A stretch of 64,000 nucleotides of DNA from a virus (taxonomy: Duplodnaviria > Caudoviricetes), in the IMG/VR virus record IMGVR_UViG_3300046615_000588, positions 37,396 to 101,395 of that record, one strand, 5' to 3'. This document shows positions 21,166 through 50,600 of this stretch, piece after piece; position 1 is the first letter of the stretch; the number at the start of each line of letters is the position of its first letter. The position numbers and the translations under genes were made by a program. The notes below the pieces were generated by a model. The model ran no database searches, had not been told where the DNA came from, and was given only the letters and a program-made list of their open reading frames with translations.

Positions 21166-21178
21166 GGGGACCGATTTT

Positions 21179-21234
21179 GACAAGATTACATTGTCATGAC
21201 AAGTTAATCTTGCTCGCCACAAGCTCAGCTTGTG
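21179..21234. promoter_or_regulatory. Operator triplet with divergent PR/PRM-like promoters
   Basis: gaCAAGattacATTGtc 21179-95, gaCAAGttaatCTTGct 21198-214, caCAAGctcagCTTGtg 21218-34; TTGTCA-N17-CAAAAT (minus) and TG-A-TACAGT (plus). Confidence 0.85.
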
Positions 21235-21248
21235 ATACAGTTGCGTCC

Positions 21249-21890
21249 ATGGACATACATTCGAGAATTAAAGAGCGCCGCCTGGAGCTGAAAATGTCAC
21301 GCCAGACGTTGGCCGAGGCGGCCGACGTGTCGCGTGAAACGGTGCGCCTGTGGGAAACGCCAGACGCGCAAAATGGCACGGCGCCGGACCGTTTCAAAAC
21401 AAAAAAAGTGGCCGACGCATTAAAAACGTCGGTCGCATACTTGGTGCTTGGAATCGATGCTAACGTGGACCCCAACGACAAATATGCCTTCATACCCAGG
21501 TATGCCGAGGCGTCAAAAAAGGGTCCCACCGTGAACTACCATGATGAGGTCGTCGATCACCGCGACGACAAGGATACGTATGCGTACCGCAAGGATGTAC
21601 TGGCCGACCTGGGCGTGCGCGCCAGCGACTGCGTGGTCGTGATCTCCAATGACAGCAGCATGTCCATCGGCAACCAGCTGCTCGTCCACACCGCCGACAA
21701 GGCGCTGGTGTCGTCGAAAATCTATGCGCTGCAAGCGACCCACGGCCTGCTGGTGCGGCGCGTATTCAAGCTCGCCGACGGGCGCATCGAGCTGCGCACC
21801 GACCAGCCGGCGACGGCGCCCGAAACCTATCAGCCGGAACAGCTGCCGCCGGTCCTCGGCCGCGTGGTCAGCGGCAGCTGGTTCGACTGA
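21249..21890 (+). CDS. cI: CI-like repressor (XRE HTH plus degenerate S24 domain)
   Basis: RIKERRLELKMSRQTLAEAADVSRETVRLWE; S24-like DSSM...LVRRV; flanked by operator triplets. Confidence 0.85.
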   Translation: MDIHSRIKERRLELKMSRQTLAEAADVSRETVRLWETPDAQNGTAPDRFKTKKVADALKTSVAYLVLGIDANVDPNDKYAFIPRYAEASKKGPTVNYHDEVVDHRDDKDTYAYRKDVLADLGVRASDCVVVISNDSSMSIGNQLLVHTADKALVSSKIYALQATHGLLVRRVFKLADGRIELRTDQPATAPETYQPEQLPPVLGRVVSGSWFD

Positions 21891-27268: not shown

Positions 27269-27946
27269 ATGGCGATGCTGGTCATCGGGGGGGTAAAGGG
27301 CGGCGTGGGCAAGAGTACGCTGGCGGAAAACGCCGTCGTCATGCGGGCGATCACGCTCGCAGGCCGCAAGAGGAAGGGGCGAAAGAAGCCGATCCTGCTG
27401 GTCGATGCCGACCCCACGCGCAAGGGCGTCAACAAGTTCCACTTGCGCCGCAAAGAGGCTGGCCATGAACCAGCCATCCAGTGCGAGCTAATGCTTGGCA
27501 ACGGCATCTACCATGACCTGCGCGACCGCCTGGAAGACTACGAGGACATCATCGTTGACTGCGGCGGCCACGACTCGCCCGAGATTAGGGGCGCGCTGAT
27601 GCTGGCCAACCAGTGGATCATCCCGACCCGGCCCAACCAGACCGACCTCGACTCGTTTGAGGCGCTAGAGGAACTGGCCGCGCTGATGCTGGCGACCAAC
27701 CCGACAATGCGCAACCGCGTCATGCTCAGCCAGGTGCGCGACCGCACCATCGACAAGAAACGCGCCGAATGGGAAACCGAACTGGCGCCGTTCCCGCTGT
27801 GCGGCGAGCTGATGACGGTCGGCACCACGATGCGCTCCACCTACGAGCTGACCCGAGGGTCGGGCCTGGCGGTGGTCGAATTTGCCGCCAAGCGCGAGAT
27901 CGCGCTGCGCGAAATGCAGCAGCTTAACCTGGAGATTTGGAAATGA
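27269..27946 (+). CDS. parA: ParA-family partition ATPase (short type Ib)
   Basis: Deviant Walker A KGGVGKST, LVDADP, IIVDCGG; no N-terminal HTH. Confidence 0.9.
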   Translation: MAMLVIGGVKGGVGKSTLAENAVVMRAITLAGRKRKGRKKPILLVDADPTRKGVNKFHLRRKEAGHEPAIQCELMLGNGIYHDLRDRLEDYEDIIVDCGGHDSPEIRGALMLANQWIIPTRPNQTDLDSFEALEELAALMLATNPTMRNRVMLSQVRDRTIDKKRAEWETELAPFPLCGELMTVGTTMRSTYELTRGSGLAVVEFAAKREIALREMQQLNLEIWK

Positions 27947-33936: not shown

Positions 33937-34461
33937 CTATTGGCCAGGCCGGCGCATGCCGGCGATCTCGCCGATGGGCACGGCGTCGCAAACATTGAAG
34001 GTGACGCCCATCTTGCCGTCCAGCTCTTTGGCCAGGTCGCCGACGAAACAGATCACCGCGTTGACGTCGGCCGTCATACGAAACGCGGATATGACCTTGT
34101 CGCGCAACGGCGTCTTGCCCACGGCGATGCCGTGAAAGACCAAGGTGTGCAGAAACTCGCCGTCGGGGCCGTACAGGTAGGGCAGGCGCAGCAGCGCTTC
34201 GCACGCGCCAACGCCAGCCGGCGTCAGGTGCGGGACCGGGTGGCCCGACCCGTCGGGGTCGGGGATCAGCTCACCGCCAGACCAGCAGCAGTAGCGGATG
34301 GTGTTGTCAACCTCGACCTCGAACACGGTCATGGTTACGTCCAAGTCAGGCGCCCAGCCTTGCGCGATGCGCAGCTGCTGCTCCGTCTCGGGCGTTGGCG
34401 AGGCGCCGATGATGAGTTTCGATCTCAAGGCGCTGGCTGCGGGGGTACGTTTTGTTCTCAT
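33937..34461 (-). CDS. Hypothetical protein co-transcribed with rep
   Basis: ATGA overlap with the rep stop. Confidence 0.7.
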   Translation of the reverse strand: MRTKRTPAASALRSKLIIGASPTPETEQQLRIAQGWAPDLDVTMTVFEVEVDNTIRYCCWSGGELIPDPDGSGHPVPHLTPAGVGACEALLRLPYLYGPDGEFLHTLVFHGIAVGKTPLRDKVISAFRMTADVNAVICFVGDLAKELDGKMGVTFNVCDAVPIGEIAGMRRPGQ

Positions 34462-35093
34462 TCTTCTTCATCGGTGTCGGTGTGAGTAACAGCCTCAACA
34501 GGGCCTGGAGCAGGCGCCCGGTCCTGATCACGCAGGCGGTACTCCTGCACGAACGCCAGGCGATCGCCGTTCCAAATGAAATCGGGGTTCACAAAAAACC
34601 ATCCCTGCGTCACCATGGGGGCGATGAAATTCTTATCCTTCAACTCGCGCACGCCACGCGAAAAGGTCGCCGGACTCAAGTCGGGGAAAATCGCCTTGTC
34701 CAGATGCGTGTGGCTAAGGAAGATTTGATCCACACCCATCTGCTTCTGCATTTCCATGTAAAGGACACCGAACAACTTGGTCCCAGCGCTGGTCAAGTCG
34801 GCCAGGCCCTTGACGCCATTGATGTACAGCTTGATGAATTGCGTCTTATCGACTTGCTTGGTTTGCCAGAAACCGGCCCCGCCCAGCACCTCGCCGCTCT
34901 TTTCGCTAACGACGAGCATGCGATCGTTATCTTGGCTGGTGATACGCTTGACCCCGCGATTGGTATTGGCCACGGCCGTCTTCAGAAAGGGATTAGACTC
35001 GTACACGATATCGCCGCGTCGTGTCTTGAGAACGGCGGGCGCGGCAGGCGGGATAGGTTTCATGACAAGTTTGGAATTTGGAAACCTTTGCAT
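34458..35093 (-). CDS. RepL-type plasmid replication initiator (winged helix)
   Basis: NPF, VDKTQFIKLY, LTSAG.KLF, LS.ATFSRG..EL and VNPDFIWNGDRLAF motifs. Confidence 0.8.
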   Translation of the reverse strand: MQRFPNSKLVMKPIPPAAPAVLKTRRGDIVYESNPFLKTAVANTNRGVKRITSQDNDRMLVVSEKSGEVLGGAGFWQTKQVDKTQFIKLYINGVKGLADLTSAGTKLFGVLYMEMQKQMGVDQIFLSHTHLDKAIFPDLSPATFSRGVRELKDKNFIAPMVTQGWFFVNPDFIWNGDRLAFVQEYRLRDQDRAPAPGPVEAVTHTDTDEEE

Positions 35094-35099
35094 TAAACA

Positions 35100-35345
35100 A
35101 CATCACATCAGCATTGTCAATCAGAATGGTCGGTTTTTTGATGAATCATTTCTCACGAGATGAAAGATAATTCTTCAAAGAGTTCGATCAATTTGGATGA
35201 TTTTTTGAGGCGCGCTCTTTCACCGTTTGAAAGAACTTCGATCAAAAAAAACAGTAAACTGAAAGAGTAATTGCAGGAACTGAAAGTTTAGTTTCAGTTC
35301 CTGCAAATTGAAACATCGCAACGTATTGATTATATTCAATATTTT
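35100..35345. promoter_or_regulatory. AT-rich origin/promoter region of the replicon
   Basis: 15-bp inverted repeat TTGCAGGAACTGAAA-6nt-TTTCAGTTCCTGCAA at 35271-35306; TTCGATCAA twice. Confidence 0.65.
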
Positions 35346-35752: not shown

Positions 35753-36050
35753 CCCTTTTTTCAGGGGCGCAGCCCCTGCGCGACGCGCGCCGCGCGGGGG
35801 ATTGGGCGCGCGCGCAGCTGGGTTTTGTCCCAAAATAGCAACTACTTGGTGAATACACAACATCTACACAAAATCACAATGCCCTGTACAATAGTTCGCT
35901 TTTTGCTTTGGGGCATCATTCATGCGCGCCGCGATGATTGTTACTTTATTATTAAAATTGGTATTTTCCTCAGTGTCTTTCATTTAATTTTGTGTGTATG
36001 GTTTGCTTTATGTCAATACACAACCCTTTTTCACACGCGAGTGGAACGCC

Positions 36051-37436
36051 ATGAGCAAGATTCATTGGACTGAGCAAGAATTCGACGCATTGGCGCAGGC
36101 CTTGCGGCAGCAATTCCCCGATCGGGCCGCCGCCCAGGTCGTGACACCGCAGCAGTTCGTGTTCACCACGCATGAAGTTGTCGTGGCCATGCACAGCACT
36201 TTCCCACGCGAACGGCAGCGGGCGCTCACGCGGGGCATGGTCAAGAAGCTGGCGGGCAAGCTGATCGAGGCCAGCGGCAGTGTTCCGCCCTCGGCCCATC
36301 AGCGCCGGAAAGCGCCCTACGCGGTGGTGCGCTGGACCCCGGAAGAATGGCGGCTGTATGCGCTGTCGCTGATGCAGCTGTTCCCGCAATTGGACCTGCT
36401 CAACTCGCCCGACCTGGCCCGCCTGCGACTCAACCACCTGAACAAGGCCTGCGCCACAATGACGCAGGACAGGCAGCGCACCTTCCACGCCCTTGGCGCC
36501 CCGATCGCGCGCCTGCGGGCGATCTACGCCGAGGCCAGGCGCTCGGGCGACGGCATGTTCACCGGCGCGCCCGCCACGGAGAAAACAGCGCCACCGGCCG
36601 CCCCGGCCACGCTGCGCCCGGTGGTCACGGAAAGCGCCGCCCAGGCTCCCAGCTGCAAGATATTCTGGACCAAGACCGAATGGGTCAAGGTCGCCGCCGA
36701 GCTGCATCGCCAGTACCCGCATGCCAAGTACCCCGAACGCAATAACCTGGGCGCCCTGAATGCGGCCGACGTGTACGGCGCGCAGATCGTGCTGCCCGAC
36801 GAGCGCCGCCGCAAGAACCTGAAACAGGTGGCCATGTCGATGCTGCGCGGGCCGCTGACCGAGGCGTTCAAGACGGTGCGCGCCATGCAGGCCGAGGAAA
36901 GCCAGCAGAAGATGGCGCTGGCGCAGCAGGCGCATAGCGAGCTGCTGGCGCGCGCCGCCGCCATCGCGGCCGAGCCGAACCCATGGGAAGTCGCCTTCAA
37001 GCCCTTCGTCGATCTGCTGGTGCGCGAGATCGGCGCGCAGCTGCTGCCGGCGCTGCTCGACGGCCTGGCAAAAGCGGCCCCGCCGCGGCCAACGCCACCG
37101 GCGCACCTGTCCCTCGCGCCAGCGACGCCGGCCCGCAAGGTCATGCGCATCGGCGTCGTCGGCAACCGCAGCGTGTACGCCGACGACCTTGAGCGGCGCT
37201 TCCAGTCGGTCGAATTCGAGTGCATCGAAAGCAGCAAGAAGATCGACAGCGTGCGCAACTGCGACAAGGTGATCGTGCTGGTCAAGTTCGTGTCGCATGA
37301 GCTGGCCAAGCATGCCCGCCGCGCGGCCGGCGAGCGCTACGTGCCGATCAACGGCAGCGTGACCGACATGTACCGGGTGATTGGCGGCTGGTTGACCGAT
37401 TCCGCGAAGGAAACCAGTGTAGCTGCAGTTGGCTAA
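36051..37436 (+). CDS. Protein with three WTxxE(W/F) helical repeats and a DUF2325-like C-terminal domain
   Basis: KIHWTEQEF, VVRWTPEEW, KIFWTKTEW; IGVVG...CDKVIVLVKFVSH. Confidence 0.75.
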   Translation: MSKIHWTEQEFDALAQALRQQFPDRAAAQVVTPQQFVFTTHEVVVAMHSTFPRERQRALTRGMVKKLAGKLIEASGSVPPSAHQRRKAPYAVVRWTPEEWRLYALSLMQLFPQLDLLNSPDLARLRLNHLNKACATMTQDRQRTFHALGAPIARLRAIYAEARRSGDGMFTGAPATEKTAPPAAPATLRPVVTESAAQAPSCKIFWTKTEWVKVAAELHRQYPHAKYPERNNLGALNAADVYGAQIVLPDERRRKNLKQVAMSMLRGPLTEAFKTVRAMQAEESQQKMALAQQAHSELLARAAAIAAEPNPWEVAFKPFVDLLVREIGAQLLPALLDGLAKAAPPRPTPPAHLSLAPATPARKVMRIGVVGNRSVYADDLERRFQSVEFECIESSKKIDSVRNCDKVIVLVKFVSHELAKHARRAAGERYVPINGSVTDMYRVIGGWLTDSAKETSVAAVG

Positions 37437-38164
37437 TGCACTGGTACGAACGTTGTGCCAGCACGTTGCTGGTGCCCGACCAGACGCTCGATGGCGCTCT
37501 GCGTGGCGCCGTCGCGCTGGCCAGCATGCTGGGCTTTGAACATTGCGGTTATACCCTGGAGACGATCTTGCCGGTGAGTGCCCCCCGTTCCCTGTTTTTG
37601 ACCAATCTGGACGGCGAATTGCAGACCAGAGTCGAGGCGCACCGCACGCAGTCGGTCTTGCCCACGGCACGGCATGTGCGCCGTTCCTCCAAACTGATGC
37701 TGTGGCCGATCGAGGGGAATTCGCCCGAACTGTTCTGGATGGACATGCGCCGGCTCGGCGTGCGCGCCGGCTGGACCCTGGCCGCCCCCGAGCGCAGCCA
37801 TGCCATTGGCCGCTTCTCGGCGTTGCGCACCAGCGGCCCGTTCAGTCAATACGAACATGTGGCCGAGCTGCCGCGCTGGATGGTGTTGACCGAAATGATG
37901 GACAAGGTGGTGCGTAAGCTGGTCTCCCCTACCCTGCTGATGGACGATACCGTTGCGCTGACACGCGAAGAAAAAGAAGTGCTGGCATGGACGGCCGATG
38001 GGGCCACGTCCAAGGAGACCGCACGTCGGATGGACATTGCGCTGCGGCGGGTGGACTACCTGCGCCGCCAGGCGGTCGACAAGCTCGGTTGCAACAACAT
38101 CACCGACGGCGTGGTCAAGGCGCTGACCCTCGGGCTGCTGACGCGGCCGGTGGTGCCGCTATGA
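37436..38164 (+). CDS. LuxR-solo-type regulator with degenerate autoinducer-binding domain
   Basis: C-terminal LTREEKEVLAWTADG...KLG HTH; N-terminal GFEHCGY...PT.RH...W...G.R.GW. Confidence 0.85.
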   Translation: MHWYERCASTLLVPDQTLDGALRGAVALASMLGFEHCGYTLETILPVSAPRSLFLTNLDGELQTRVEAHRTQSVLPTARHVRRSSKLMLWPIEGNSPELFWMDMRRLGVRAGWTLAAPERSHAIGRFSALRTSGPFSQYEHVAELPRWMVLTEMMDKVVRKLVSPTLLMDDTVALTREEKEVLAWTADGATSKETARRMDIALRRVDYLRRQAVDKLGCNNITDGVVKALTLGLLTRPVVPL

Positions 38165-38565
38165 GCTTGGACGGCTGGGTCGGCTTCTATACGATCGGCG
38201 CCGATCGCGTGCCGGTCCCCTGCTTCGACGTGATGGAGTGGGGGCTGTGGCACGCCAACAACCTGGCCGCCTGCCGGGTCGGCGACGACCGCACCGAACA
38301 TTATCGGGTCAGCACCGTGTTCCTCGCGCTCGATCATAACCACTTCCGGCAAGACGACCCGATCCTGTTCGAGACCATGGTGTTCTTCACCGACGGCGAG
38401 TATGGCGCCATGGAGCGCTATCGCACCTGGGCCGAGGCGGCGGCCGGCCACGAGCGCATCCGCTCGATGCTGGAGCGCGAGTACGCCGACGCCCACCAGC
38501 TGACACTGGCGACGCTGCGCGCATTGCTGGCGGCGCCCACCCACGCACAACCAGGAACAGCATGA
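38161..38565 (+). CDS. Conserved phage hypothetical protein
   Basis: VSTVFL.LDH...LFETMVF...RY.TW.EA..GH pattern. Confidence 0.75.
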   Translation: MSLDGWVGFYTIGADRVPVPCFDVMEWGLWHANNLAACRVGDDRTEHYRVSTVFLALDHNHFRQDDPILFETMVFFTDGEYGAMERYRTWAEAAAGHERIRSMLEREYADAHQLTLATLRALLAAPTHAQPGTA

Positions 38566-38789
38566 AAATGACGACGATCGGCCTGCCGATATGGGTGATC
38601 TACGCGCATCCCAAGGATTCCCCGGATGCCTTTGTGGCGCGGTTGTGGGATGGCATGACGGACCAGCCGACCGCCTCCTATCTGGTGGCCCCGACGTTGG
38701 CCGCGCTGCGCCTGCGTCTGCCGCCCGATCTGCACCGCCTGCAGCGCAACACGCAAGACGAACCCCACGTAATGGAGAGCTGGATATGA
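38562..38789 (+). CDS. Hypothetical protein
   Basis: AGGA SD; coupled. Confidence 0.7.
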   Translation: MKMTTIGLPIWVIYAHPKDSPDAFVARLWDGMTDQPTASYLVAPTLAALRLRLPPDLHRLQRNTQDEPHVMESWI

Positions 38790-39094
38790 CGCACGACTGC
38801 TACAAACCCATCGACACGCCGGATGGCATGCTGATCGAGCCGTGCCCCGTGTGCAATGCCCGCGCCAGCCTGTGGCGCCAAAGCGAAGCGCCGGATGCGC
38901 CCACCACCACCGCCGTCATGTGCAGCAACGGCAAACGCTTCGGCCCGCAGGACGGGCTGGTCAACGAGGGCTGCCTGCTGTACATGCCACCAGAGGACTT
39001 CCATCGCGGCACAATCCGCGAGGCGGTGCGCTACTGGAACGAGTACGCGCTGGCGTTGCGCGAACTGAGCTTGCAAAACCTCATCAACGCATGA
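38786..39094 (+). CDS. Zinc-binding hypothetical protein (Lar-like pattern)
   Basis: PCPVC...EAVRYWN. Confidence 0.6.
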   Translation: MTHDCYKPIDTPDGMLIEPCPVCNARASLWRQSEAPDAPTTTAVMCSNGKRFGPQDGLVNEGCLLYMPPEDFHRGTIREAVRYWNEYALALRELSLQNLINA

Positions 39095-39318
39095 GCGCGC
39101 CCTATTACATCGCCGTCTACGGCGGCTTTCTCGTCATCGAAACCTACCCGGATGGCGCCGGGCGTTACATCACCAAGGTCTACACGGTGCCCAACGTGCG
39201 CCATGCCACGCCCTGGCCGAACTTCCTGATCGCTGACTCCGCCGCCAAGTGGGCGGTCGGCCAGCTGTACCCGCCGGACCTGCGCTACTTCGCCATCCTG
39301 ACAGGAGCATTCGCATGA
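39091..39318 (+). CDS. Hypothetical protein
   Basis: ATGA-coupled. Confidence 0.6.
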   Translation: MSAPYYIAVYGGFLVIETYPDGAGRYITKVYTVPNVRHATPWPNFLIADSAAKWAVGQLYPPDLRYFAILTGAFA

Positions 39319-39569
39319 CCGTGACCGTAGCCGGCAACACCTATTCCGTAACCAGCACCCGCGGCTGCCGCGTCATCGACGGCTGGGTGCCAATCAGCGA
39401 CATGGCCGTGCTGATGCGCGCCTGGGCCGACAAGGGCCAGCACGCCGACGACGAATGGGTTGTCGATGGCCAGCTGTCGGAGCACCTGGGCGTGAACATG
39501 GTCTGCGGGCCGCGCTCGGCCACCACCGCATGGCGGGCAGCGCTTGGCCTGACGCCACCTACCCCTTAA
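39315..39569 (+). CDS. Hypothetical protein
   Basis: AGGAG SD; ATGA-coupled. Confidence 0.6.
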   Translation: MTVTVAGNTYSVTSTRGCRVIDGWVPISDMAVLMRAWADKGQHADDEWVVDGQLSEHLGVNMVCGPRSATTAWRAALGLTPPTP

Positions 39570-39581
39570 CGAAAGCAAAAC

Positions 39582-39944
39582 ATGGAAAACGACCAACAAC
39601 CGACCGACGACAGCGCTACCATGACCCCGGAGCGCGGCAACCAGGTGGCCTCGTTCGCCGCCTACCTGACCCAGCAAATGCTCGACGCCATCACCTCTGA
39701 CGACAACGTGCTGCGCTGGGAAGACGTGGTGCTCGCCGCCGCGATGGCCTGTCGCGCCATCGGCCAGGTGGGCACCATCATGGCCGCCAAGGAAACCGGC
39801 AAGGAACACGATCAGGAGGAAACCGACCAGCGCATCGCCGCCATACTGGCCAGAGCGCACGCAATCAAGATGGTCGCCGTCAAGGTTAACGACATACAAG
39901 AAGCCGGCGCCTACATGGACGGTGTCGCTAACGGGTTCCACTGA
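39582..39944 (+). CDS. Hypothetical protein
   Basis: Native codon usage. Confidence 0.65.
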   Translation: MENDQQPTDDSATMTPERGNQVASFAAYLTQQMLDAITSDDNVLRWEDVVLAAAMACRAIGQVGTIMAAKETGKEHDQEETDQRIAAILARAHAIKMVAVKVNDIQEAGAYMDGVANGFH

Positions 39945-40591
39945 TGGAGGGGGTGAAAATCTTCGATACCAGCAACGTGCGCGACTGCAGTGACGAGGTG
40001 ATCGCCGCGCCTGGCCGGCCGCGCATCATGCCGGCCGACTACTACCGCGCCACCAGCGTCGTGGAACGCGCCCTGCTGGGTGCCCGCAACGCACTGTACG
40101 GCTTGCCCACGACCGAGCTGGTGGGATGGGTCGGCAACGAGATCGGCGGACGCAGCGCGATCGAGATCGGCGCCGGGCACGGAGCGCTGGCCGGCGCGCT
40201 GGGCATTGCCGCTACCGACAGCTGGATGCAGCATGATCCGATCATCGCCGCGCTGTACGCGACCACAGGCCAGAGGGTCATCAGCTACGGCCCCAACGTG
40301 TTCAAGATGGCCGCCGACGAAGCCATCGACTACTACAAGCCGCAGGTGGTGGTGGCCTGCTGGGTCACGCACAAGTGGCGCGAGGACCGGCCCGAGGCGG
40401 GCGGCAACATGATCGGCGTGGACGAGGAAGCGCTGATCGACGCCTGCGAGAGCTACATTTTCATCGGCAACGAGCAGGTGCACCGCCACAAGTCGATCTG
40501 GAGCCGGCCGCACCGGATCATCTACCCGGACTGGCTGTATTCACGCGCACACAACGGCTCAAGGGATTTCATTGCGGTATGGGGCAAGTGA
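39944..40591 (+). CDS. SAM-dependent methyltransferase-like protein
   Basis: IEIGAGHG motif I. Confidence 0.65.
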   Translation: MEGVKIFDTSNVRDCSDEVIAAPGRPRIMPADYYRATSVVERALLGARNALYGLPTTELVGWVGNEIGGRSAIEIGAGHGALAGALGIAATDSWMQHDPIIAALYATTGQRVISYGPNVFKMAADEAIDYYKPQVVVACWVTHKWREDRPEAGGNMIGVDEEALIDACESYIFIGNEQVHRHKSIWSRPHRIIYPDWLYSRAHNGSRDFIAVWGK

Positions 40592-40926
40592 TGGACGACA
40601 AGATCGAGATCGAGCTGCGGCTGCCCGACGAGCTGGCGCGCAACCTGGCGCAATTCGCCCATGATGTGGGCCAGACCATGGACGAGCTGGTGGAGAACGC
40701 GCTGACGTGGGCGTTGCAACGGCGCGGCAGTCGCAACGGGCGCGAGGGGCGCTATGTCGGCAAGTTTCGCGGGCGCCACCTGCGCACGACCAAGCTGCTG
40801 TTCTACGGTGACGGGCGCATCGTGCCGGATGCCGATGTCGCCTGGGGTGAGGCCTCGCGCCGTGCCGGCGAACCGCTGCCAGTGCGCCGTCCACGCTATA
40901 TCACCAAGGGGTTGCGCAATGGCTGA
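40591..40926 (+). CDS. Ribbon-helix-helix (CopG-like) protein
   Basis: IELRLPDELARNL...GQTMDELVENAL. Confidence 0.6.
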   Translation: MDDKIEIELRLPDELARNLAQFAHDVGQTMDELVENALTWALQRRGSRNGREGRYVGKFRGRHLRTTKLLFYGDGRIVPDADVAWGEASRRAGEPLPVRRPRYITKGLRNG

Positions 40927-41536
40927 CATGGAAGCAATCCGCGCCCGCGGCGCCGATCCGGCCATGCTGGTCGAGGCGCAGAAACGCTCCGATGCGATCT
41001 ATGCGCGCATCGACACGGTGGCGGGGCAAAAGCTGGCCGAGCGGGCCAGGGCGGCCAACAGCAAGCAGGCCAAGGTGGTGCTGCTGCGCCAGCTGGCCGA
41101 CGGCGTGGTCAAGGCGTCGGCGGGGATTGCCCCATGCAAAAAGGGCTGCAACCACTGCTGCAAGATGGCCACGCTGGTGTCGGTGCAGGAGGCCGAAGTG
41201 ATCGCGCGCGAGACAGGCGCGAAGCTGACGATGCCCGCCAAGTTCAACCAGTTCGGCGGCGAATTGCAAAAGAAGTACGAGGGAGTGGCGTGCAGTTTTC
41301 TGACCGAACAGGGGTGCAGCATCTATGCGCAGCGGCCGTATGCCTGCCGGGTGCATGTGTCGGTCGATGCTGACGCCTTGCTGTGCGAGATCGTGCCGGG
41401 CGTGAAAATACGTTCGCCGAACTTCAATGCGACCAGCTACGACACGGCGTTCGTGCAGGCGTTTGGTGGGGCGTTGACGATGAAGTATGCGGATATCAGG
41501 GAGTTTTTCGTGCCGGGGGCCGGCAGGAAAGCGTAG
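40919..41536 (+). CDS. YkgJ-family cysteine-cluster protein
   Basis: CKKGCNHCC...CSFL...CSIYAQRPYACR. Confidence 0.85.
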   Translation: MADMEAIRARGADPAMLVEAQKRSDAIYARIDTVAGQKLAERARAANSKQAKVVLLRQLADGVVKASAGIAPCKKGCNHCCKMATLVSVQEAEVIARETGAKLTMPAKFNQFGGELQKKYEGVACSFLTEQGCSIYAQRPYACRVHVSVDADALLCEIVPGVKIRSPNFNATSYDTAFVQAFGGALTMKYADIREFFVPGAGRKA

Positions 41537-41580
41537 GACGCGACGCGGGCGAGCCGCGTGCTGGGAGAAAGGAGGCGCGC

Positions 41581-41934
41581 ATGACAGCGCGTAAACCATT
41601 GACTCTGACACTGGAAGAACAAAGCCACCAGTGGTGCCAGCTGATGGCGGGCACCATTATCCGCGCGCGCCGCGAGCGTCGCTGGTCGCAGCGCCAGCTC
41701 GGCGCCAAGGTGGGCCTGAGTCAATCGCAGATATCGGTGCTGGAGAGCGACCCCGACGCTATGCACGTCGGCCGCCTGTACGGCACCTTGCGCGCGCTCG
41801 GCATCGACCTGGTGATGCAGCCGCTGTCGCCAGCCGATGCGCAACTGGTGCGGCGCCGGCGCAGCGATCGGCTGGCGGTGCGTGAAACCAGCGCGGCGAA
41901 TGACCAGACCGGGGCACTCGGCCCGGCGGCTTGA
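41581..41934 (+). CDS. HipB-like XRE HTH protein (orphan)
   Basis: RARRERRWSQRQLGAKVGLSQSQISVLESDP; AAGGAGG SD. Confidence 0.75.
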   Translation: MTARKPLTLTLEEQSHQWCQLMAGTIIRARRERRWSQRQLGAKVGLSQSQISVLESDPDAMHVGRLYGTLRALGIDLVMQPLSPADAQLVRRRRSDRLAVRETSAANDQTGALGPAA

Positions 41935-41953
41935 ATGACACGGAGACCAGCAG

Positions 41954-42322
41954 ATGGCCGGCACGCGATTTTCCAAACCAGAGGGGATCAGGCGGTTGAA
42001 CCTGGTCGTCGAATATCTGATCGAGCATGGCGCCGCCAGCGACGAGCATATCGGCGCGCTGCTCGCTATCACACCGAAGTCGGCGCTGGTGTACCTGAAC
42101 CGGCTGCGCGCCGACGGCCGCGCGCACCGACGCGCCGGCACCCAGCTGTGGGAACCCGGCCCCGGCCAGACCTGGCTCAAGGCCGAACAAGGCGCACCCG
42201 ACACTGCGCCAACGCAGCGCAGTTGCGCCCACTGGCAAACCGGCCACGCGCGGCGCGACTACCTGGTCGAGGCGCTGTTCGGGCCGGCCGCCAACGCCGG
42301 TGTCAACGCGGTGCGCGCGTAG
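41954..42322 (+). CDS. Hypothetical winged-HTH protein
   Basis: GGAG SD; YLNRLRADG; RRDYLVEALFG motif. Confidence 0.6.
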   Translation: MAGTRFSKPEGIRRLNLVVEYLIEHGAASDEHIGALLAITPKSALVYLNRLRADGRAHRRAGTQLWEPGPGQTWLKAEQGAPDTAPTQRSCAHWQTGHARRDYLVEALFGPAANAGVNAVRA

Positions 42323-42613
42323 ATGGACAAGGATACCAAGAAGGTGGTCAAGGCCGCGTGCGAGCGGGGCTGGACCCTGTTGGGCGGCAACAAGCACCCG
42401 ATCCTGCAGCACATACTGTCGGGGCGCAAGGTGGCGGTCCCATCGTCGCCGTCGTGTCCGCATTCGTCCAAGAACACGCAGAAGGATATCGAGCGGGTCG
42501 AGCGCGAATACGCCGCCGGCAAGGATTTCTGTTCGCCCGACCAGTGCCTGTGCCGCGTGCTGGGCGAAGACCCGAGCAACTGTGCCATGGGCGTGCCCAG
42601 GAGCGCCACCTGA
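42323..42613 (+). CDS. HicA-like protein
   Basis: GW...GNKH.ILQH...G.KVAVP.SPS pattern. Confidence 0.6.
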   Translation: MDKDTKKVVKAACERGWTLLGGNKHPILQHILSGRKVAVPSSPSCPHSSKNTQKDIERVEREYAAGKDFCSPDQCLCRVLGEDPSNCAMGVPRSAT

Positions 42614-42972
42614 TGCGCATACTGGTGACGGGCGGGCGCGACTACACCGACCAGACCGAAGTGGACAACGCGCTCGACGCGGTGCACCGCAAGCATGGCA
42701 TCACGCTGCTGATAGAAGGCGGTGCGCGCGGCGCCGACCGGCTGGCGCGCAGCTGGGCCAGGCGCAACAACGTCCTGCTGTGCACCTTTGAAGCGGAATG
42801 GGGCAAGTACGGCAAGGCCGTCGCCGGGCCGCTGCGCAACGGGCGCATGCTCAGCGAGGGCCGCCCCGAGGCGGTGGTGGCCTTCCCCGGCGGCGCCGGG
42901 ACGGCCGACATGGTGGCGAAAGCCGAAGCGGCCAGGGTGCCGGTGTGGAAAACAGGAGGCTGGTCCAGATGA
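42613..42972 (+). CDS. YspA/SLOG-family (DUF2493-like) protein
   Basis: ILVTGGRDY, GGARGAD, AGPLRN and AFPGG.GTADM motifs. Confidence 0.85.
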   Translation: MRILVTGGRDYTDQTEVDNALDAVHRKHGITLLIEGGARGADRLARSWARRNNVLLCTFEAEWGKYGKAVAGPLRNGRMLSEGRPEAVVAFPGGAGTADMVAKAEAARVPVWKTGGWSR

Positions 42973-43568
42973 ACGACAAGAGTGTAGCCGAGGTCGTGAT
43001 GTTGATCATCGCCGCCTACGACGAGGAACTGACCATCATGCGCCGCGAACGCGACGAGGCCAAGTCGGCCGCGCGCCAGGCGGAGGCCAACGCGCGTCAC
43101 TGGCAATCGAACCATGCCGACCAAGTGGCGCGCTGTGCGCTGCTGCGCGAGCGCCCTGACCTGCCGGTCGATCGGATTCCGGCTTACAAGGAGCTGGTGC
43201 GCCTGCAGCAGGCACAGGCGCAGCAAGGCGAAGCCAAAACGCCAGCACCACTGTTTGACCGCAAGTTGGCCGATCTAGAGCAGCGCGGCTACGCAGTGAT
43301 CGGCCGCATCTTGCACAAGGACGGCCAGTACGCGCTGTTCGATAGCTCGTGCCGCTGGCTCACCAAGCCACAATATCAGCGACTGATGCACGAACAGGAC
43401 GGCTCGCTGTTTTCCGCACCCGCTGTTGCGGAGGGCTGGCGCGATCTGACGCAAGACGAAGTACGCAAAATATACAGAATGTGGGGTCACTGCCAGGAAA
43501 CGCCCATGGCACTGTTCAAACGATTCAAGGACGCGGCCTCCGCGCCGGCGCCGGAGGGCCAGCCATGA
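42969..43568 (+). CDS. Mosaic phage hypothetical protein
   Basis: AGGAGG SD; coiled coil; WRDLTQDE module. Confidence 0.65.
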   Translation: MNDKSVAEVVMLIIAAYDEELTIMRRERDEAKSAARQAEANARHWQSNHADQVARCALLRERPDLPVDRIPAYKELVRLQQAQAQQGEAKTPAPLFDRKLADLEQRGYAVIGRILHKDGQYALFDSSCRWLTKPQYQRLMHEQDGSLFSAPAVAEGWRDLTQDEVRKIYRMWGHCQETPMALFKRFKDAASAPAPEGQP

Positions 43569-44113
43569 GCGCAAAAATCGGAACGGTGCGCATGGAGCGC
43601 AACCGCGCTATCCAAGGCCAAAAGGATATGCGCCGACACAACCGCGAATTGGCCAAGGAAATCGCCGAACTCCGCGCAGCCAGCGAAAAACAAACTGGGC
43701 CGGGAAGCCCATCGGCACGGCTAAGCTGGTTGCTGGGTGAACTGGCCAGGTTGTTCCCGGACGCCACGAACCTGTATGGCGCCGCACCGCCGGAGATCGC
43801 GTACTTTGAAAAGCTGACACAACTTGCGAACCGCCAAGCGCAGCAGGTGGCAAAACAATGCCCGATTTGCGAAAGCCATAAGGTTAAGCAGTATCACGAG
43901 TGTAGTGACTGTGGCACCTACTACGCCGATGGTGATGACCTCGATGCCAACGCCGCTCGTGGCAAACAACTTGCGGCGCAGCAGGGCGATAAACCATTCT
44001 GCTACATGAGTGAAACTTACGAGGTTGCGCTACTTACCGAGCCGCCGAAGGCAGGTAGCCAGTATGCCGATATGTTCCCGGTGTATCGAAGGAAGCTAAA
44101 TGAAAACCAGTGA
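43565..44113 (+). CDS. Mosaic hypothetical protein with zinc ribbon
   Basis: CPIC...CSDC. Confidence 0.6.
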   Translation: MSAKIGTVRMERNRAIQGQKDMRRHNRELAKEIAELRAASEKQTGPGSPSARLSWLLGELARLFPDATNLYGAAPPEIAYFEKLTQLANRQAQQVAKQCPICESHKVKQYHECSDCGTYYADGDDLDANAARGKQLAAQQGDKPFCYMSETYEVALLTEPPKAGSQYADMFPVYRRKLNENQ

Positions 44114-44354
44114 CATCGTGCTGACCACCAATGTCAAACTGCGCAACCGGGTCGTCAAACCAACCATGCAGGCGACCTTTAAGTCCAATCCCGGCACAGC
44201 CATGTGCTTCCTGTATTGCGGCAGCGTCACACCGGACGAAGACCCGGTGCAGCGCGCCAAGCGCGTGCTGGAGTGGATGGGCTGGGTGCTGCCGCCGGCC
44301 GAGGGCGACGACGAGGGCATCGCCGCGGCGATGGCCGCCAGGGAGACACCATGA
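44100..44354 (+). CDS. Hypothetical protein
   Basis: AAGGA SD; coupled. Confidence 0.6.
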   Translation: MKTSDIVLTTNVKLRNRVVKPTMQATFKSNPGTAMCFLYCGSVTPDEDPVQRAKRVLEWMGWVLPPAEGDDEGIAAAMAARETP

Positions 44355-44455
44355 GCGACGAAGCCATCCGAATCATTGCCTATGACGCGCGCCTGCTCGG
44401 GTTTTTCGCGTTGGTAGGCTTCATCGTCTGGCTTTGCTCAAAAGACGGCACATAG
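44351..44455 (+). CDS. 34-aa single-TM peptide
   Basis: GGGAG SD; ATGA overlap; hydrophobic helix. Confidence 0.5.
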   Translation: MSDEAIRIIAYDARLLGFFALVGFIVWLCSKDGT

Positions 44456-44465
44456 GACATTCACC

Positions 44466-44837
44466 ATGAACGACGACAAGGTAGTACACGCCTTCCCCAG
44501 CGCCCAACTGCCAGAAAACCTGATCACGGTGGAGCCGCGCAATCCAGCGCTGCCTTACCACTGCGACCACCCGGCGCTGCGTTTGGACGAACACGAGCGC
44601 ACGGTGCATTGCGCCGCCTGCACTGCCACGCTGGACCCGTTCAACTTCCTGCTCAACAACGCCAGGACGTTGCAAACAGCCTGGCAGAACTATCGGTCCA
44701 CGCGCACCATGGTCGGCGAGCTGCAGGAGCGCGTCACGGTGTTGAAGAAAGAGGAAGCGCGCCTGCGCAGCGCCGTCAAACGCCTGCAGGCGAAAGTGCC
44801 CGCGCCGCTGGACGTGCGCGGCAACCCCACGCCATGA
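44466..44837 (+). CDS. Conserved phage protein (zinc-binding plus coiled coil)
   Basis: CDH...VHCAAC...LDPF pattern. Confidence 0.7.
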   Translation: MNDDKVVHAFPSAQLPENLITVEPRNPALPYHCDHPALRLDEHERTVHCAACTATLDPFNFLLNNARTLQTAWQNYRSTRTMVGELQERVTVLKKEEARLRSAVKRLQAKVPAPLDVRGNPTP

Positions 44838-44870
44838 GCGTGATATGTTCCCGGTGTATCGGAGGCGACC

Positions 44871-45236
44871 GTGAGTAAGCCAAAGCAGGGCCAGATCGTG
44901 CGCATGTTCCGCGCCGCGATCCCGACGTTCGAGTGTGTGCCGGGGTGCACCGACTGCTGCGGCCCGGTGCCGGCCAGCGAATGGGAACTGAAACGCCTAC
45001 CCAGGCTGGACCCGGCCACGCGCGTCGCCTGCTACACGGCCGATGGACTGTCCTGCCCGCACAAGGGGCCGCTTGGGTGCATGGTGTACGAGGAACGTCC
45101 GCTGGTGTGCCGCCTGTTCGGCACGGTTGAGAAACTGCCCTGCCCGCACGGCCGGCGCCCGGCAAAGCTGCTCGATCCACAGGTCGAGCGCGAAATCCTG
45201 CGCTACACCAGCGGCGTGAAGCACGAACTACTATAG
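44871..45236 (+). CDS. YkgJ-family cysteine-cluster protein, second copy
   Basis: CVPGCTDCCG...CPH...GCMVYEERPLVCRLFG; GGAGG SD. Confidence 0.85.
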   Translation: MSKPKQGQIVRMFRAAIPTFECVPGCTDCCGPVPASEWELKRLPRLDPATRVACYTADGLSCPHKGPLGCMVYEERPLVCRLFGTVEKLPCPHGRRPAKLLDPQVEREILRYTSGVKHELL

Positions 45237-45250
45237 AAGACTATAGAAGG

Positions 45251-45574
45251 ATGGCCAACATGAAAAACTATTGCGCCCCGTCGTCGAACGGGCAATGCAG
45301 CTGCCGCAAGTTCGGCGCCGATCCGAATAACTGCGAGCATGGCGCCAGGGGGGCAAGCGAAGTTATCGAACAGCTGCAAGAGCGGGAAATCGCCGCCCTC
45401 CGTGCAGTTCTCCAGGCGCAGCAGGACGCGCTGCAAAAAGCCATTCACGTTATCGAAGACATACTGATGGCCGACGACGGGCAAGCATGGAAAGAGGCAC
45501 GGCGCGTGCTACCTAAACTGAAATCCGTACTTGAAGTAATCAACCCCATAAGCAACCAAAAGGAGTCACCATGA
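45251..45574 (+). CDS. Hypothetical protein
   Basis: In-operon ORF. Confidence 0.55.
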   Translation: MANMKNYCAPSSNGQCSCRKFGADPNNCEHGARGASEVIEQLQEREIAALRAVLQAQQDALQKAIHVIEDILMADDGQAWKEARRVLPKLKSVLEVINPISNQKESP

Positions 45575-45759
45575 ACAAGAACGAATTTGACATGGAAAAG
45601 ATCGACGCACTGCCGGTCTTTGACCCGGCCGACCACCTCAGCAGTGATTCAGCTATCGTTGCGTTTCTGACCGATTTTGTTGGCGAGGAAAATCCGGTGC
45701 TACTGAGGGCTGCGATTGAAAACGTCGCTCGGGCGCTGGCGCAGCGCACGACTAAATGA
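45571..45759 (+). CDS. Truncated addiction-module antidote-like protein (no HTH)
   Basis: FDPADHLSSDSAIVAFL...NP.LL.AAI.NVARA then stop; AAGGAG SD. Confidence 0.7.
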   Translation: MNKNEFDMEKIDALPVFDPADHLSSDSAIVAFLTDFVGEENPVLLRAAIENVARALAQRTTK

Positions 45760-45971
45760 GCGCAGCAAGCCGGCTGCTCGAACCGGGCGCGATGGTGACC
45801 ACCGATTTCTCGGGGCGCGTCACCACCCACAAAATCATGTTGCGCTATGCGGGCCGTTGCCAGAGCGGTATCCTGTTCGAGGTGCACCCGCCGGTGCCCA
45901 AGTCGAATAACCGGGGCATCTGCGCCGACTGGTTCGAGCCGGCCGAGAGCGGCCAGGCCCCACTGTTTTAA
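45756..45971 (+). CDS. Hypothetical protein
   Basis: ATGA-coupled; CQSG...V.PPVP...I.ADWF pattern. Confidence 0.6.
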   Translation: MSAASRLLEPGAMVTTDFSGRVTTHKIMLRYAGRCQSGILFEVHPPVPKSNNRGICADWFEPAESGQAPLF

Positions 45972-46027
45972 CCAATTGCACACCCGCCGCCGCGCCGGGA
46001 GCAGCGCGGCACCACCAGGAGACCGCA

Positions 46028-46306
46028 ATGGAACAACAAGCACCAGCAACCCAGGCCAACAACCCCGGCGAGATCGACACCTTGGCCGAGATCGATGCCG
46101 TGGGCGCAACGCTGCTCGCGCTGCACGACAAGATCGACGCCGAATGCAACGACAACTACCAGGCGCTGGGCGGCTTTAACGCCAGCACCACGCCAGAGCT
46201 GGACACCGCCTACGCCGCCTGCGAAGCGATCAGCGAGGCCAAGCGCAACCTGCAAACCGGCCTGATGTGGCTCCGGCGCGCTGTGGTGAAACCTTCCGGC
46301 TTCTAA
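46028..46306 (+). CDS. Acb2-like anti-CBASS nucleotide sponge (divergent)
   Basis: EIDxxxxIxxxG helix and C-terminal AKRNLQTGLMWLRRAVVKPSGF; 92 aa; AGGAG SD. Confidence 0.7.
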   Translation: MEQQAPATQANNPGEIDTLAEIDAVGATLLALHDKIDAECNDNYQALGGFNASTTPELDTAYAACEAISEAKRNLQTGLMWLRRAVVKPSGF

Positions 46307-47628: not shown

Positions 47629-50600
47629 TTACGGGGTCTCGTCGGCGAAGGCGCCGGCGGCGCGCGCATCGCGGCGCGACTTCGGCAAGAAGATGCCTTC
47701 CTTGGCCTGCGCCACATGCTGCATGTGCAGGCGCACGCTATGCTGCAGGTGCAGCGGCGCTATCATGCGGGTCGGGTGCAGCGCATTGAATGCCTGGATC
47801 GCCTGCAAGGTGGCCGCCGGGTCTTCCTGCCGCATGACGTGGTGCGCATACTCAGTCATCAGCTGCTGACGGCGCTGCTGCAAGGCCTTGTCGGTCTGGT
47901 AGATCGCGCTTTTCCCGGCCTGCGCCTCACGGCCGCGGCTCGGCGAAAAGCCGAGGAACTGGCCGGCATCCTCGGCCAGCGTGGTCTCGGGCAGCAGCTC
48001 GATGCCGGTGCGGTCCTTGATCCCCTCCTGGGCGTAGCGCAGGGTTTTCAACGGCCCGCGCAGGAACGCCGGCATCATTTCCTCCAGCCCGCGCTGCCAG
48101 TCGCCGTTGTGAGCAATGGTGTACATGCCCTTGGACGCATTCACGACCATGCCGGCTACCGGCCCCAGCAACCCGGTCATGTACGACTCGGCCAGCGGTG
48201 CACCGGCCAGCCCTTCCTGCACGTCCGGTAGCAGCAGCGAATTGAGCCCGACGCGCGCGGAAATGTCCCACGGCGTCAGGCGCGACAGGCCATGCGCCAG
48301 CACTTCGCCGGCCTTGTCGCCGAAGGCGTCGGCCATCAGGTTGCGCAGCGCGATCTCGGCGTCCCACGGCTCGTCGTCCGAACCGCCGATCATCGAAGCG
48401 GCGGCCAGCAACGTGCCCACCACCGGCAGGCCCAGCACGCCAGCGGCCAGCGCGTGGGTCGTCAGCAGGCCGGCGATGGTCTTGGCGGCCTGGCGATCGC
48501 CCTTGACCGCGCGCACCGCGTTGCGGGTGAAGGTGTAGATCATGTTCTGCGCGTATTGCTTAAATAGCAACACAACCCGCGCCACGTCTCCCTGCATCAC
48601 GCGCGCGCGATTGCCCGACGAATAATCGAAGTGCGCCGCGTTGGTGTCCTGCACCGAAGCAGCGTAGGCGGCGTCGTGGTCCATGCCCTGCTCGCGGGCC
48701 AGCCGGTATGACGCCAGCGCTGTGGCCTGGCGGTTGAAGCGTTCGGCGTGGTGGAACATGAACGACGCCGTTTTCAGCACCGTGCCCATGGCGCCGTGCA
48801 GCGCGCTGTCGTGGCCGGCGGCGATGCTGGTCAGGTCGTGCGCCAAGGTCACATCCACCAGCCCCGACTTGATCCAGCCCTCATAGGCGCGCAGCTCGTC
48901 GCCGGTAAGGACCTTGCCCATGTCGTTGTGGCCGCGCACCGCGTCCTGCGAGGCGGCGGTCAGCGCCGAGGCGGCCTTGCCGAAGCCGTAGCGCCCGCCC
49001 AGGATCGGATAGGCCACCAGCGCCGTCTGCGTTAGGTTGACCGCCGCCGACGCCGGCGACAGGCCGAGGTAGAACACGAAGCCGACCGAGGTCAGCCAGT
49101 TCGACAGCTTATTGTTTTTCGGGTTCAAATACAGGTCGTGGCGCTTGACCATTTCATCAACCACCTGCTGCGCCTTGACCGCATCGTAGCCGGCGTCCTG
49201 GTTGTGCGCGTTGACGTAGTGCTGCATGTCGTCGATCGCCTGTGCCAGCTGGTCGGCGTAGTTCAGCTTGGCCAGGTAGCGCGCGCCGTGGAACATGTGG
49301 TTGGCGAACGCGCGGCGTGCGTCCTGCGAGAAGCCGGGCGTGCCCTTGCGGTGGATGCCGTGCTTGGCCCACGACAGGTCAGGCAAGGACGTCAGGTACA
49401 GCTGGTTGATCGCGTCCTGCAGGGACGGGTCCATGCCGGTGGTCTTGAACAGATTGAACATTTGCTGCAGGAAGCCACGCCCCACCGAATCGCGCGCCGC
49501 GTTGTACTCGGCGCGCAGGGTCACCTGCGCCACCTGGTAGCCCCGCTCCGGCGGGTACTGCTTGATCAGCTCGGCGCGCAGGGCCTGCGCCTCGCCCATG
49601 GTTTCGGCGAAGTGGATCGCCTCGCGCGCCTGCCCCATGGCCGGGTTCGGGTTGACCCCGCGCCAGTTCACCTGCACCATGTAGTCGCCGAAGCGCGCCA
49701 GCGGGAAGTAGATGCCCTTGATCTTGCCGAAGAACTCAGCATCCATGCGCGCCAGCATCGCGGCGCGGTTCGGGTTGCCGGCCAGGGCGCGGTCGATGCG
49801 CTGGTGCACGGCTTCCCGCACCGCGGCGTAGTGCTTCTCATAGGCGTTGGAGGCCTCGGTGAAGACCGCCTTGGCGCCCGGTGACAGCGCCTCGTAGCGG
49901 GCGCGCAGTTCGGTGTAGTTGGTCTTGATGTCGCCCATCACGTACTTCTTGCGCGGGTCGATCTGGTACAGGGTCGCGTCGTGCATCAGTTCGGCCAGCG
50001 CCTGGTGGTCCTTCAGCTTGCCCCAATCGGTGGCGATGGTGTCGGCCTGCGCGCTGGTGTCGTGTTTCTCGGCGTCCATCCGCATGGCCAGCTTGTTGTA
50101 CAGCGCCATCAGGTTGTCCTTGATCCCTTGCGGGAACAGGTGGCCGTACACCTCGACCAGCTGCTGGCGGCCGAGGAACTGCAACGCTATCCGGCCGTAA
50201 TCGACCAGTTTGTTCTTGATGCTGGTGACGGTCAGTGCTTTGATGGTTGATCCCACCTGGCGCGAGATATCGGACGGGCTGCGCGAGAACAGGATATTCG
50301 GGTTGGTCGGGTCGAAGTTGCCATTGTTGCCGGTGGCGGATTTTATCTGCCCTGGCTCGAAGGCGATAAAGACATCGCCTTCGAGCTTGTCGATCTTGTC
50401 GCCGTAGATGGCAACGCCGTCGTACCCCTCATCGAGGGCCGCCTGACGGAATTGCTCTACCCCGCCCTCTCGTTCAACGGCAGCGCGGAAAGCCTTGATC
50501 GCACCCTGTTGTTCATCACCTTGGAAGGTAATCGGGCGCTGGATTGACAAGTAGGAGGGCATAATAGTACTGCCGTACTTGCTGGCCGAGTCAGCATTGC

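Follow-up and report, generated by a model that had tools for sequence, protein, structure and literature searches.

A phage-encoded LuxR solo with a rewired ligand pocket, predicted to be blind to acyl-homoserine lactones

We analysed a stretch of 64,000 nucleotides (hereafter, the window), which forms the final 64 kb of a single virus record of 101,395 bp in IMG/VR (IMGVR_UViG_3300046615_000588, positions 37,396 to 101,395). The second gene of a long operon in this window codes for a LuxR-type regulator of 242 amino acids (aa). We propose that this phage LuxR is a working transcription factor belonging to the LuxR family that no longer senses acyl-homoserine lactones (AHLs) and that most likely acts without any ligand, a reading to which we give slightly less than an even chance. 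The gene, its domains and the codons of its putative ligand pocket are as follows; positions are those of the window, and residue numbers are those of the phage protein unless another receptor is named.

37436-38164, plus strand: gene for the LuxR-type regulator, 242 aa, recognized from its open reading frame (ORF), its Autoind_bind and GerE matches, its AlphaFold2 (AF2) model and its ratio of nonsynonymous to synonymous substitution rates (dN/dS).
37499-37849, plus strand: autoinducer-binding-type domain, residues 22-138 by Pfam; by secondary structure the fold spans approximately residues 1-165.
37955-38119, plus strand: GerE/LuxR-type helix-turn-helix (HTH), residues 174-228, with E179, L183 and G189 kept and an atypical, variable recognition helix (203-216).
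37607-37660, plus strand: codons for L58, L62, V66 and L75, in place of the AHL-contacting Y53, W57, Y61 and D70 of TraR, according to the RhlR and QscR alignments and column statistics.
37559-37561, plus strand: codon for E42, equivalent to RhlR R48, which faces the pocket interior; the acidic residue is specific to the clade described below.
37745-37747, plus strand: codon for M104, equivalent to TraR A105 and RhlR A111, a bulky residue at the lactone site.
37811-37819, plus strand: codons for R126, F127 and S128; R126 is equivalent to RhlR V133 and LasR A127 (the third position of the variant RhlR*, see below), and S128 to RhlR S135.

The luxR ORF has a coding-type composition, with 81% G or C at third codon positions (GC3 0.81). 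Its product matched the Pfam families PF03472, Autoind_bind (E value 4e-11, 43 bits against a cut-off of 23), and PF00196, GerE (E value 1e-9, 38 bits against a cut-off of 23.5). An AF2 model built from a 132-sequence alignment had a predicted local distance difference test score (pLDDT) of 94 and a predicted template modelling score (pTM) of 0.85. When this model was compared with full-length receptors by Foldseek, template modelling (TM) scores of 0.84-0.88 to QscR and RhlR were obtained (about 0.86 for RhlR), these two being also the nearest solved proteins by sequence. As modelled, the protein has the complete two-domain LuxR fold. Pairwise dN/dS values of 0.44-0.55, found over both domains, indicate that luxR is under purifying selection. 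No LuxI family (PF00765) was matched anywhere in the complete 101,395-bp genome, as the initial annotation of the window had stated, and only one Autoind_bind domain was present. The protein is therefore a LuxR solo, without a cognate LuxI-type synthase in its genome.

To compare pockets, residue equivalences were taken from HMMER alignments to QscR, to an engineered RhlR and to native RhlR. The initial annotation had read TraR W57, Y61 and D70 by eye as L, V and L. The HMMER alignments gave the same residues, RhlR W68 (TraR W57) corresponding to L62, RhlR Y72 (TraR Y61) to V66 and RhlR D81 (TraR D70) to L75, and they added a fourth change, since RhlR Y64 (TraR Y53) corresponds to L58. In a 159-sequence LuxR alignment the TraR residue itself stood in the columns of W57, Y61 and D70 in 129, 126 and 129 sequences, respectively, so that the assignment is independent of any single pairwise alignment. 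Six residues of the ligand domain are listed as conserved among LuxR proteins (W57, Y61, D70, P71, W85 and G113 in TraR numbering; PMC4338825). The last three are retained, again as first noted: RhlR P82, W96 and G119 (TraR P71, W85 and G113) are P76, W90 and G112. S128, the equivalent of RhlR S135, is the sole canonical polar contact retained. Further equivalences are RhlR V133 with R126, RhlR A111 with M104, and RhlR R48 with E42.

These residues are shared with a clade of relatives. Nine relatives at 62-88% identity were found, all of them metagenomic singletons and several from contigs close to 100 kb long, and three related IMG/VR loci were syntenic at 85-90% nucleotide identity. An exhaustive HMMER search added three proteins at 36-40% identity, below which only canonical LuxRs appeared (at most 36%). 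In a 132-sequence tree, 13 rewired proteins together with P0015, an odd relative that likewise lacks W, Y and D, made up one side of a branch with a Shimodaira-Hasegawa-like approximate likelihood ratio test (SH-aLRT) value of 99 and a stem length of 0.65. By these alignments and this tree, the rewired pattern is evidently kept across a monophyletic clade, down to 36% identity. When more members were sought, genome contigs gave one weak partial match, and from metagenome contigs no LuxRs but canonical ones were recovered, none above 30% identity. In the phage and plasmid collections no match to the phage LuxR exceeded 34% identity, no species-representative bacterial genome carried the clade, and none of the cellular LuxRs found exceeded about 34% identity.

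At the changed pocket columns, 75-93% of 119 other LuxRs have the canonical residue. The pocket-facing replacements in the clade are T40 for G, E42 for R, A, T or G71 for Y, A78 for V, M104 for A, L115 for Q and R126 for M or L. Within the clade L62 is invariant, position 58 is L, F or A, position 66 is V, I, L or A, and position 75 is L or M. Position 104 is M, V or I, position 128 is S or T, and position 130 is L, V, I or G. Position 126 is R, apart from K in one member and S in another; neither R nor K occurred there in any of the canonical LuxRs aligned. The polar pair E42/R126 is specific to the clade and was absent from the 119 canonical LuxRs. A Glu-Arg pair lying inside the pocket is plausible, because RhlR R48, the equivalent of E42, faces the interior of the ligand-binding domain (PMC6176596).

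Published receptor data bear directly on these changes. In RhlR structures the lactone is hydrogen-bonded by W68 and the amide by Y64, D81 and S135 (PMC9715718), and the W68A, Y72A and D81A variants of RhlR are stable proteins that do not respond to N-butyryl-homoserine lactone (C4-HSL) (PMC6176596). At TraR A105, substitution by a bulky residue blocks the pocket for the lactone (PMC8546723). We predict that the phage LuxR is AHL-blind, because three of the four hydrogen-bonding side chains are aliphatic and a bulky Met (Val or Ile elsewhere in the clade) occupies the lactone site, and because RhlR loses its C4-HSL response on alanine substitution at W68, Y72 or D81. The alignment thus upholds the earlier description of a phage LuxR solo with a rewired pocket, one in which the canonical hydrogen bonds to an AHL cannot form.

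What the pocket does instead had been put forward as either ligand independence or sensing of a non-AHL signal. This proved to be the right pair of options, and one comparison adds weight to the first. The triple mutant RhlR* (Y64F W68F V133F), obtained from a genetic screen, is stable and fully active without ligand, and its authors suggested that side chains of hydrophobic residues occupy the pocket and make it stable; they equated the three positions with LasR Y56, W60 and A127 (PMC6564026). Ligand independence is the most likely and sensing of another ligand the less likely of the two, because all three RhlR* positions (64, 68 and 133; 58, 62 and 126 in the phage protein) are changed throughout the clade. 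According to this reading the pocket is probably self-satisfied, and the protein would fold, dimerise and bind DNA without a signal, as the natural equivalent of RhlR*. Its activity would then be governed by transcription of the operon, and possibly by a partner protein encoded upstream.

The HTH was found to be conserved in one part and altered in another. The claim of retained HTH residues is true of the three classic invariants E179, L183 and G189 (TraR E178, L182 and G188), which do not vary in a 10-member clade. It does not hold for the recognition helix, the most variable part of the protein (entropy 1.03): relative to other LuxRs, a T found in 92% is replaced by R205, an H found in 98% by L or V209, and a K by I222. 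Because this helix departs from the usual form and differs among close relatives, the targets are more likely to be phage promoters co-evolving with the phage LuxR than a fixed, canonical lux box of the host.

Several observations weigh against ligand independence, or against a functional regulator of the proposed kind. The RhlR* triple change fails to free LasR from its ligand (PMC6564026); because the same substitutions leave LasR ligand-dependent, the analogy need not transfer to the phage protein. A crude hand count of side-chain volumes over aligned pocket positions, some of which were taken over from LasR, gave roughly no net filling, so that a cavity may persist, and with it room for another ligand. 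E42, R126, S/T128 and T40 could equally well serve to recognise some other ligand. The dN/dS of luxR exceeds that of most neighbouring genes. Finally, a genome-wide search for lux boxes (palindromes of 16-28 bp) returned about 100 matches, mostly GC-rich chance occurrences, and no target site could be assigned.

It is possible, although we would not expect it, that the phage LuxR senses a non-AHL small molecule of host or environmental origin through its re-lined pocket and switches DNA binding accordingly, in the manner of PluR, PauR and the plant-signal solos. The ligand domain stays full-length over the whole identity range of 36-100%, bacterial solos in which invariant residues are substituted are usually read in this way (PMC4338825; PMC8546723), and the size of the aliphatic pocket residues varies (positions 58, 66, 104 and 130), as in receptors tuned to different ligands. 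Conservation is also higher at pocket-lining positions than at the other structured ones (entropy 0.42 against 0.69). Core residues, however, are usually more conserved regardless of function, and the low entropy fits ligand independence and a non-AHL ligand alike. The clade-specific E42/R126 pair, which could be a binding feature, could also be an internal salt bridge. No candidate ligand gene or synthase gene was seen among the neighbours scanned, and the change at all three RhlR* positions favours ligand independence.

We return to the preferred, ligand-independent reading and to the genes with which luxR is expressed. luxR is the second gene of a long, tightly packed plus-strand string that runs from about 35994 to 46306. 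Its neighbours and the control region of the string are as follows.

35845-35993, plus strand: AT-rich, conserved control region of the operon, with a promoter-like site at 35863-35892 (-10 TACAAT).
36054-37436, plus strand: partner gene, 460 aa from its ATG, with an alternative GTG start at 35994; its stop overlaps the luxR start.
38161-38565, plus strand: downstream gene, 134 aa, whose start overlaps the luxR stop; it is strongly conserved (dN/dS 0.14-0.21).

The stop of the partner gene and the start of luxR share the sequence TAATG (37434-37438), and the luxR stop and the next start share ATGA (38161-38164). Through the first of these overlaps, luxR is translationally coupled to the gene of the phage-specific 460-aa partner. 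The partner contains a unit of about 75 aa (W-T-x-x-E-W ... P-x-x-R-(Q/R)-R) in three copies, besides a long linker of helices and, at its C-terminus, a flavodoxin/CheY-like alpha/beta domain; its pairwise dN/dS is about 0.31. Only eight homologues were found. luxR and the partner look like a conserved, co-inherited module, because the contigs of these homologues are equal in length to the contigs that carry members of the LuxR clade. Family and fold searches with the partner gave only a sub-threshold Pfam match (DUF2325), no match in PHROGs, a score of 0.80 in the ESM Atlas that serves only as a lead, and, for an AF2 model with pLDDT 75, no match in the PDB at E <= 0.001.

Taken together with ligand independence, we offer a more specific proposal, and only tentatively: a natural, signal-independent LuxR of the RhlR* kind and a phage-only repeat protein may work as a two-protein module that is uncoupled from host cell density; or else the gating may come from the partner, or from a novel class of ligand acting through Glu42 and Arg126.

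The DNA ahead of the operon was inspected for control elements. Between 35845 and 36025, repeats of the ACACAA type flank the -10 box (at 35854, 35865 and 36017), with an inverted copy at about 35987-36005, an arrangement that suggests several operator sites for a repressor. A perfect inverted repeat of 15+15 nt at 35271-35306 (TTGCAGGAACTGAAA / TTTCAGTTCCTGCAA) is AT-rich, adjoins a promoter-like site at 35308-35336 and is fully conserved in two relatives. As a lux box it was set aside, for it is set among TGAAAG repeats; it probably belongs to the origin, or the iterons, of the replicon next to it. A 13-mer, ATCTACACAAAAT, common to the operon promoter and genome position 37208 was also rejected as a shared site, its second copy lying inside a coding sequence. 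On the minus strand further upstream, the ORF at 34458-35093 had no Pfam or PHROGs family, and that at 33937-34461 no PHROGs family, at the thresholds used.

Other genes of the string may be recorded here. A gene for 120 aa in the same operon (39582-39944, plus strand) gave dN/dS values of 0.77 and 1.22 against two relatives, compared with 0.14-0.33 for its neighbours, and may be under diversifying selection. The same string codes for a protein with a CxxCxxCC zinc/iron-chelating domain (40916-41536, plus strand), an XRE-type HTH protein (41578-41934, plus strand) and a protein of the YspA/SLOG family (YAcAr; 42610-42972, plus strand). A weak Lar-like zinc-ribbon match was seen at 38786-39094.

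The initial annotation had also suggested that the protein poisons LuxR dimers of the host. Its wider form is an anti-quorum-sensing factor that forms inactive heterodimers with host LuxR, or competes for lux boxes, and so locks quorum-controlled genes of the host, for example its defences. We consider this improbable. Precedents exist in TrlR with TraR, in QscR heterodimers and in the phage protein Aqs1 (PMC13043044), and the nearest cellular homologues are betaproteobacterial LuxRs of the AHL type. However, the HTH is intact and conserved, unlike that of the truncated TrlR, and its recognition helix is non-canonical and variable within the clade. The best-conserved residues of the long dimer helix are replaced (L by W148, W by V150, H by D156 and S or A by R160), and the low identity to every cellular LuxR found points the same way. 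Dimer poisoning is thus weakly disfavoured.

About equally improbable, in our judgement, is that the protein answers host AHLs by non-canonical contacts and triggers lysis through an antirepressor, in the way of Apop and ARM81ld, two phages of Aeromonas. That phage LuxRs can bind C4-HSL and drive a small-ORF (smORF) antirepressor is established (PMC6456758; PMC10432266). The known module consists of an xre-luxR operon that depends on C4-HSL, with an antirepressor smORF in the opposite orientation some 150 nt upstream, in a telN-type linear plasmid phage (PMC10432266). The present phage is plasmid-like, with ParA and ParB, it retains S/T128 at the position of RhlR S135, and its CI-like repressor has a weak S24 match, all of which would suit such a module. 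The loss of three of the four hydrogen-bonding residues, the Met at the lactone site and the loss of C4-HSL response on alanine substitution at the equivalent RhlR positions (PMC6176596) stand against it, as does the make-up of the locus. No XRE partner lies upstream of luxR; the 460-aa repeat protein in that place has no HTH family match and no fold match. The sole counter-oriented small ORF upstream codes for 39 aa (35864-35983, minus strand), and as a gene it was rejected: its ATG is lost in one sequence compared (L002), and in another (L003) a 2-nt indel leads to a premature stop. The stretch is conserved as DNA but not as a reading frame, and is apparently promoter or operator DNA.

The CI-like repressor itself (21177-21890, plus strand) has an HTH_3 domain and a Peptidase_S24 match of 20.7 bits, under the Pfam cut-off of 23.3. 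By eye, the DSSM Ser motif is kept and an Arg stands at the position of the catalytic Lys of LexA (VRRVF). It is plausible that this repressor is non-cleavable. The idea that the phage LuxR provides its induction route found no support, as the XRE partner, a conserved smORF and telN are absent and luxR is about 14 kb from cI/cro; nothing ties the CI-like repressor to the phage LuxR. The divergent neighbour of the CI-like gene (20575-21222, minus strand) codes for a Cro/YdaS HTH fused to DUF4406.

That luxR was captured from a host, has lost its function and is now decaying is barely tenable. In favour are its dN/dS, higher than that of most neighbours, and the rarity of the clade members, all metagenomic singletons. 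Against it, at least 13 sequences, with identities down to 36%, have an uninterrupted frame, neither domain reaches a dN/dS of 1, the new residues are in turn conserved (L62 invariant), the predicted fold is of high confidence and the translational coupling is conserved.

The record is a genuine tailed phage. It ends in direct terminal repeats of 127 bp, with a completeness estimate of 100%, and its first 37 kb code for the major head protein, portal, large terminase and head-closure protein. Within the window are baseplate-like proteins, a primase, a helicase, the CI-like repressor and the following two genes, which lie 10-17 kb away from luxR.

19239-20150: ParB-like gene.
27269-27946: ParA-like gene.

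These features are best explained by a temperate, plasmid-like tailed phage. A likeness to plasmid-like phages such as VP882 had been drawn at the outset; the protelomerase gene telN (PF16684) was not found in the genome, which in this respect differs from phages of the VP882 and ARM81ld types. The GC content is about 64%, the closest cellular LuxRs are those of Burkholderia, Ralstonia and Variovorax (32-34% identity), and the helicase shares 58% identity with its counterpart in an Acidovorax phage; a host among the Burkholderiales is a reasonable inference. The window also contains one uninterrupted ORF of 5,406 aa (47629-63849, minus strand).

The phage LuxRs examined by experiment to date recognise AHLs of the host or else autoinducers that the prophage itself produces. 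If AHL-blindness holds, at the very positions that free RhlR from its signal in the laboratory, phages would have a second way to use the LuxR family, as a stable regulator that is signal-free or differently gated. The protein would then be a natural and probably soluble LuxR-type protein for structural study of ligand-free folding, and its partner would offer a new case for comparison with PqsE-RhlR and XRE-LuxR. Should the phage LuxR bind a new ligand instead, phage 'eavesdropping' would reach beyond the known autoinducers.

Both AHL-binding phage LuxRs and bacterial LuxR solos altered at invariant residues are already known, the latter being common. What is new is a phage-specific clade that lacks all three classic contacts, is changed at all three RhlR* positions and has its own partner. 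The closest experimental precedent can be sought among the solved receptors, where RhlR and RhlR* are the best sequence match (E value 3.8e-20 for the engineered variant and 6.8e-13 for native RhlR). All three mutated positions of RhlR* are altered in the clade (58, L62 and R126), and just as RhlR works with its partner PqsE, the phage luxR has a co-translated partner, which is unrelated to PqsE. The identity is about 25%, however, and the phage LuxR also loses Y72 and D81, both of which RhlR* keeps, and has Leu and Arg rather than Phe at the mutated positions. Ligand independence was measured for RhlR*, whereas for the phage LuxR it is inferred. By structure the best match is QscR of P. aeruginosa (TM 0.84-0.88), likewise an orphan receptor, which aligns without gaps over residues 28-93; QscR, on the other hand, keeps Y58, W62, Y66 and D75 and binds 3-oxo-C12-HSL.

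Among phage proteins, the LuxRs of ARM81ld and Apop are similar in that each belongs to a plasmid-like temperate phage, with luxR in an operon with an upstream partner and no phage luxI. Those proteins bind C4-HSL, need XRE, activate a counter-oriented smORF antirepressor and belong to telN-type linear plasmid phages. The phage LuxR described here has lost the AHL contacts, its partner of 460 aa is a repeat protein without an HTH match, no smORF is conserved and telN is absent; tblastn similarity to ARM81ld was limited to the HTH. Prophages of Phaeobacter inhibens are also reported, in a 2026 preprint, to use a phage-encoded LuxR in life-cycle control (PMC13345283). There the prophage has its own synthase and autoinducer, whereas the present phage has no luxI and a pocket predicted to be AHL-blind.

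The bacterial non-AHL solos (PluR and PauR of Photorhabdus; OryR, XccR and PipR; the pseudomonad subgroups D-I) resemble the phage LuxR in combining Autoind_bind and HTH domains, in having no synthase and in carrying substituted invariant pocket residues. The phage pattern, with L, V/I/L and L/M at TraR W57, Y61 and D70 together with E42 and R126, matches none of these groups. In the plant-signal solos OryR, XccR and PipR, W57 is M, Y61 is W, D70 is kept and a proline iminopeptidase gene is adjacent, while no peptidase family was matched among the luxR neighbours scanned. Dominant-negative proteins of the TrlR/TraS type, finally, have lost the DNA-binding domain, whereas the phage LuxR has a full, conserved GerE HTH.

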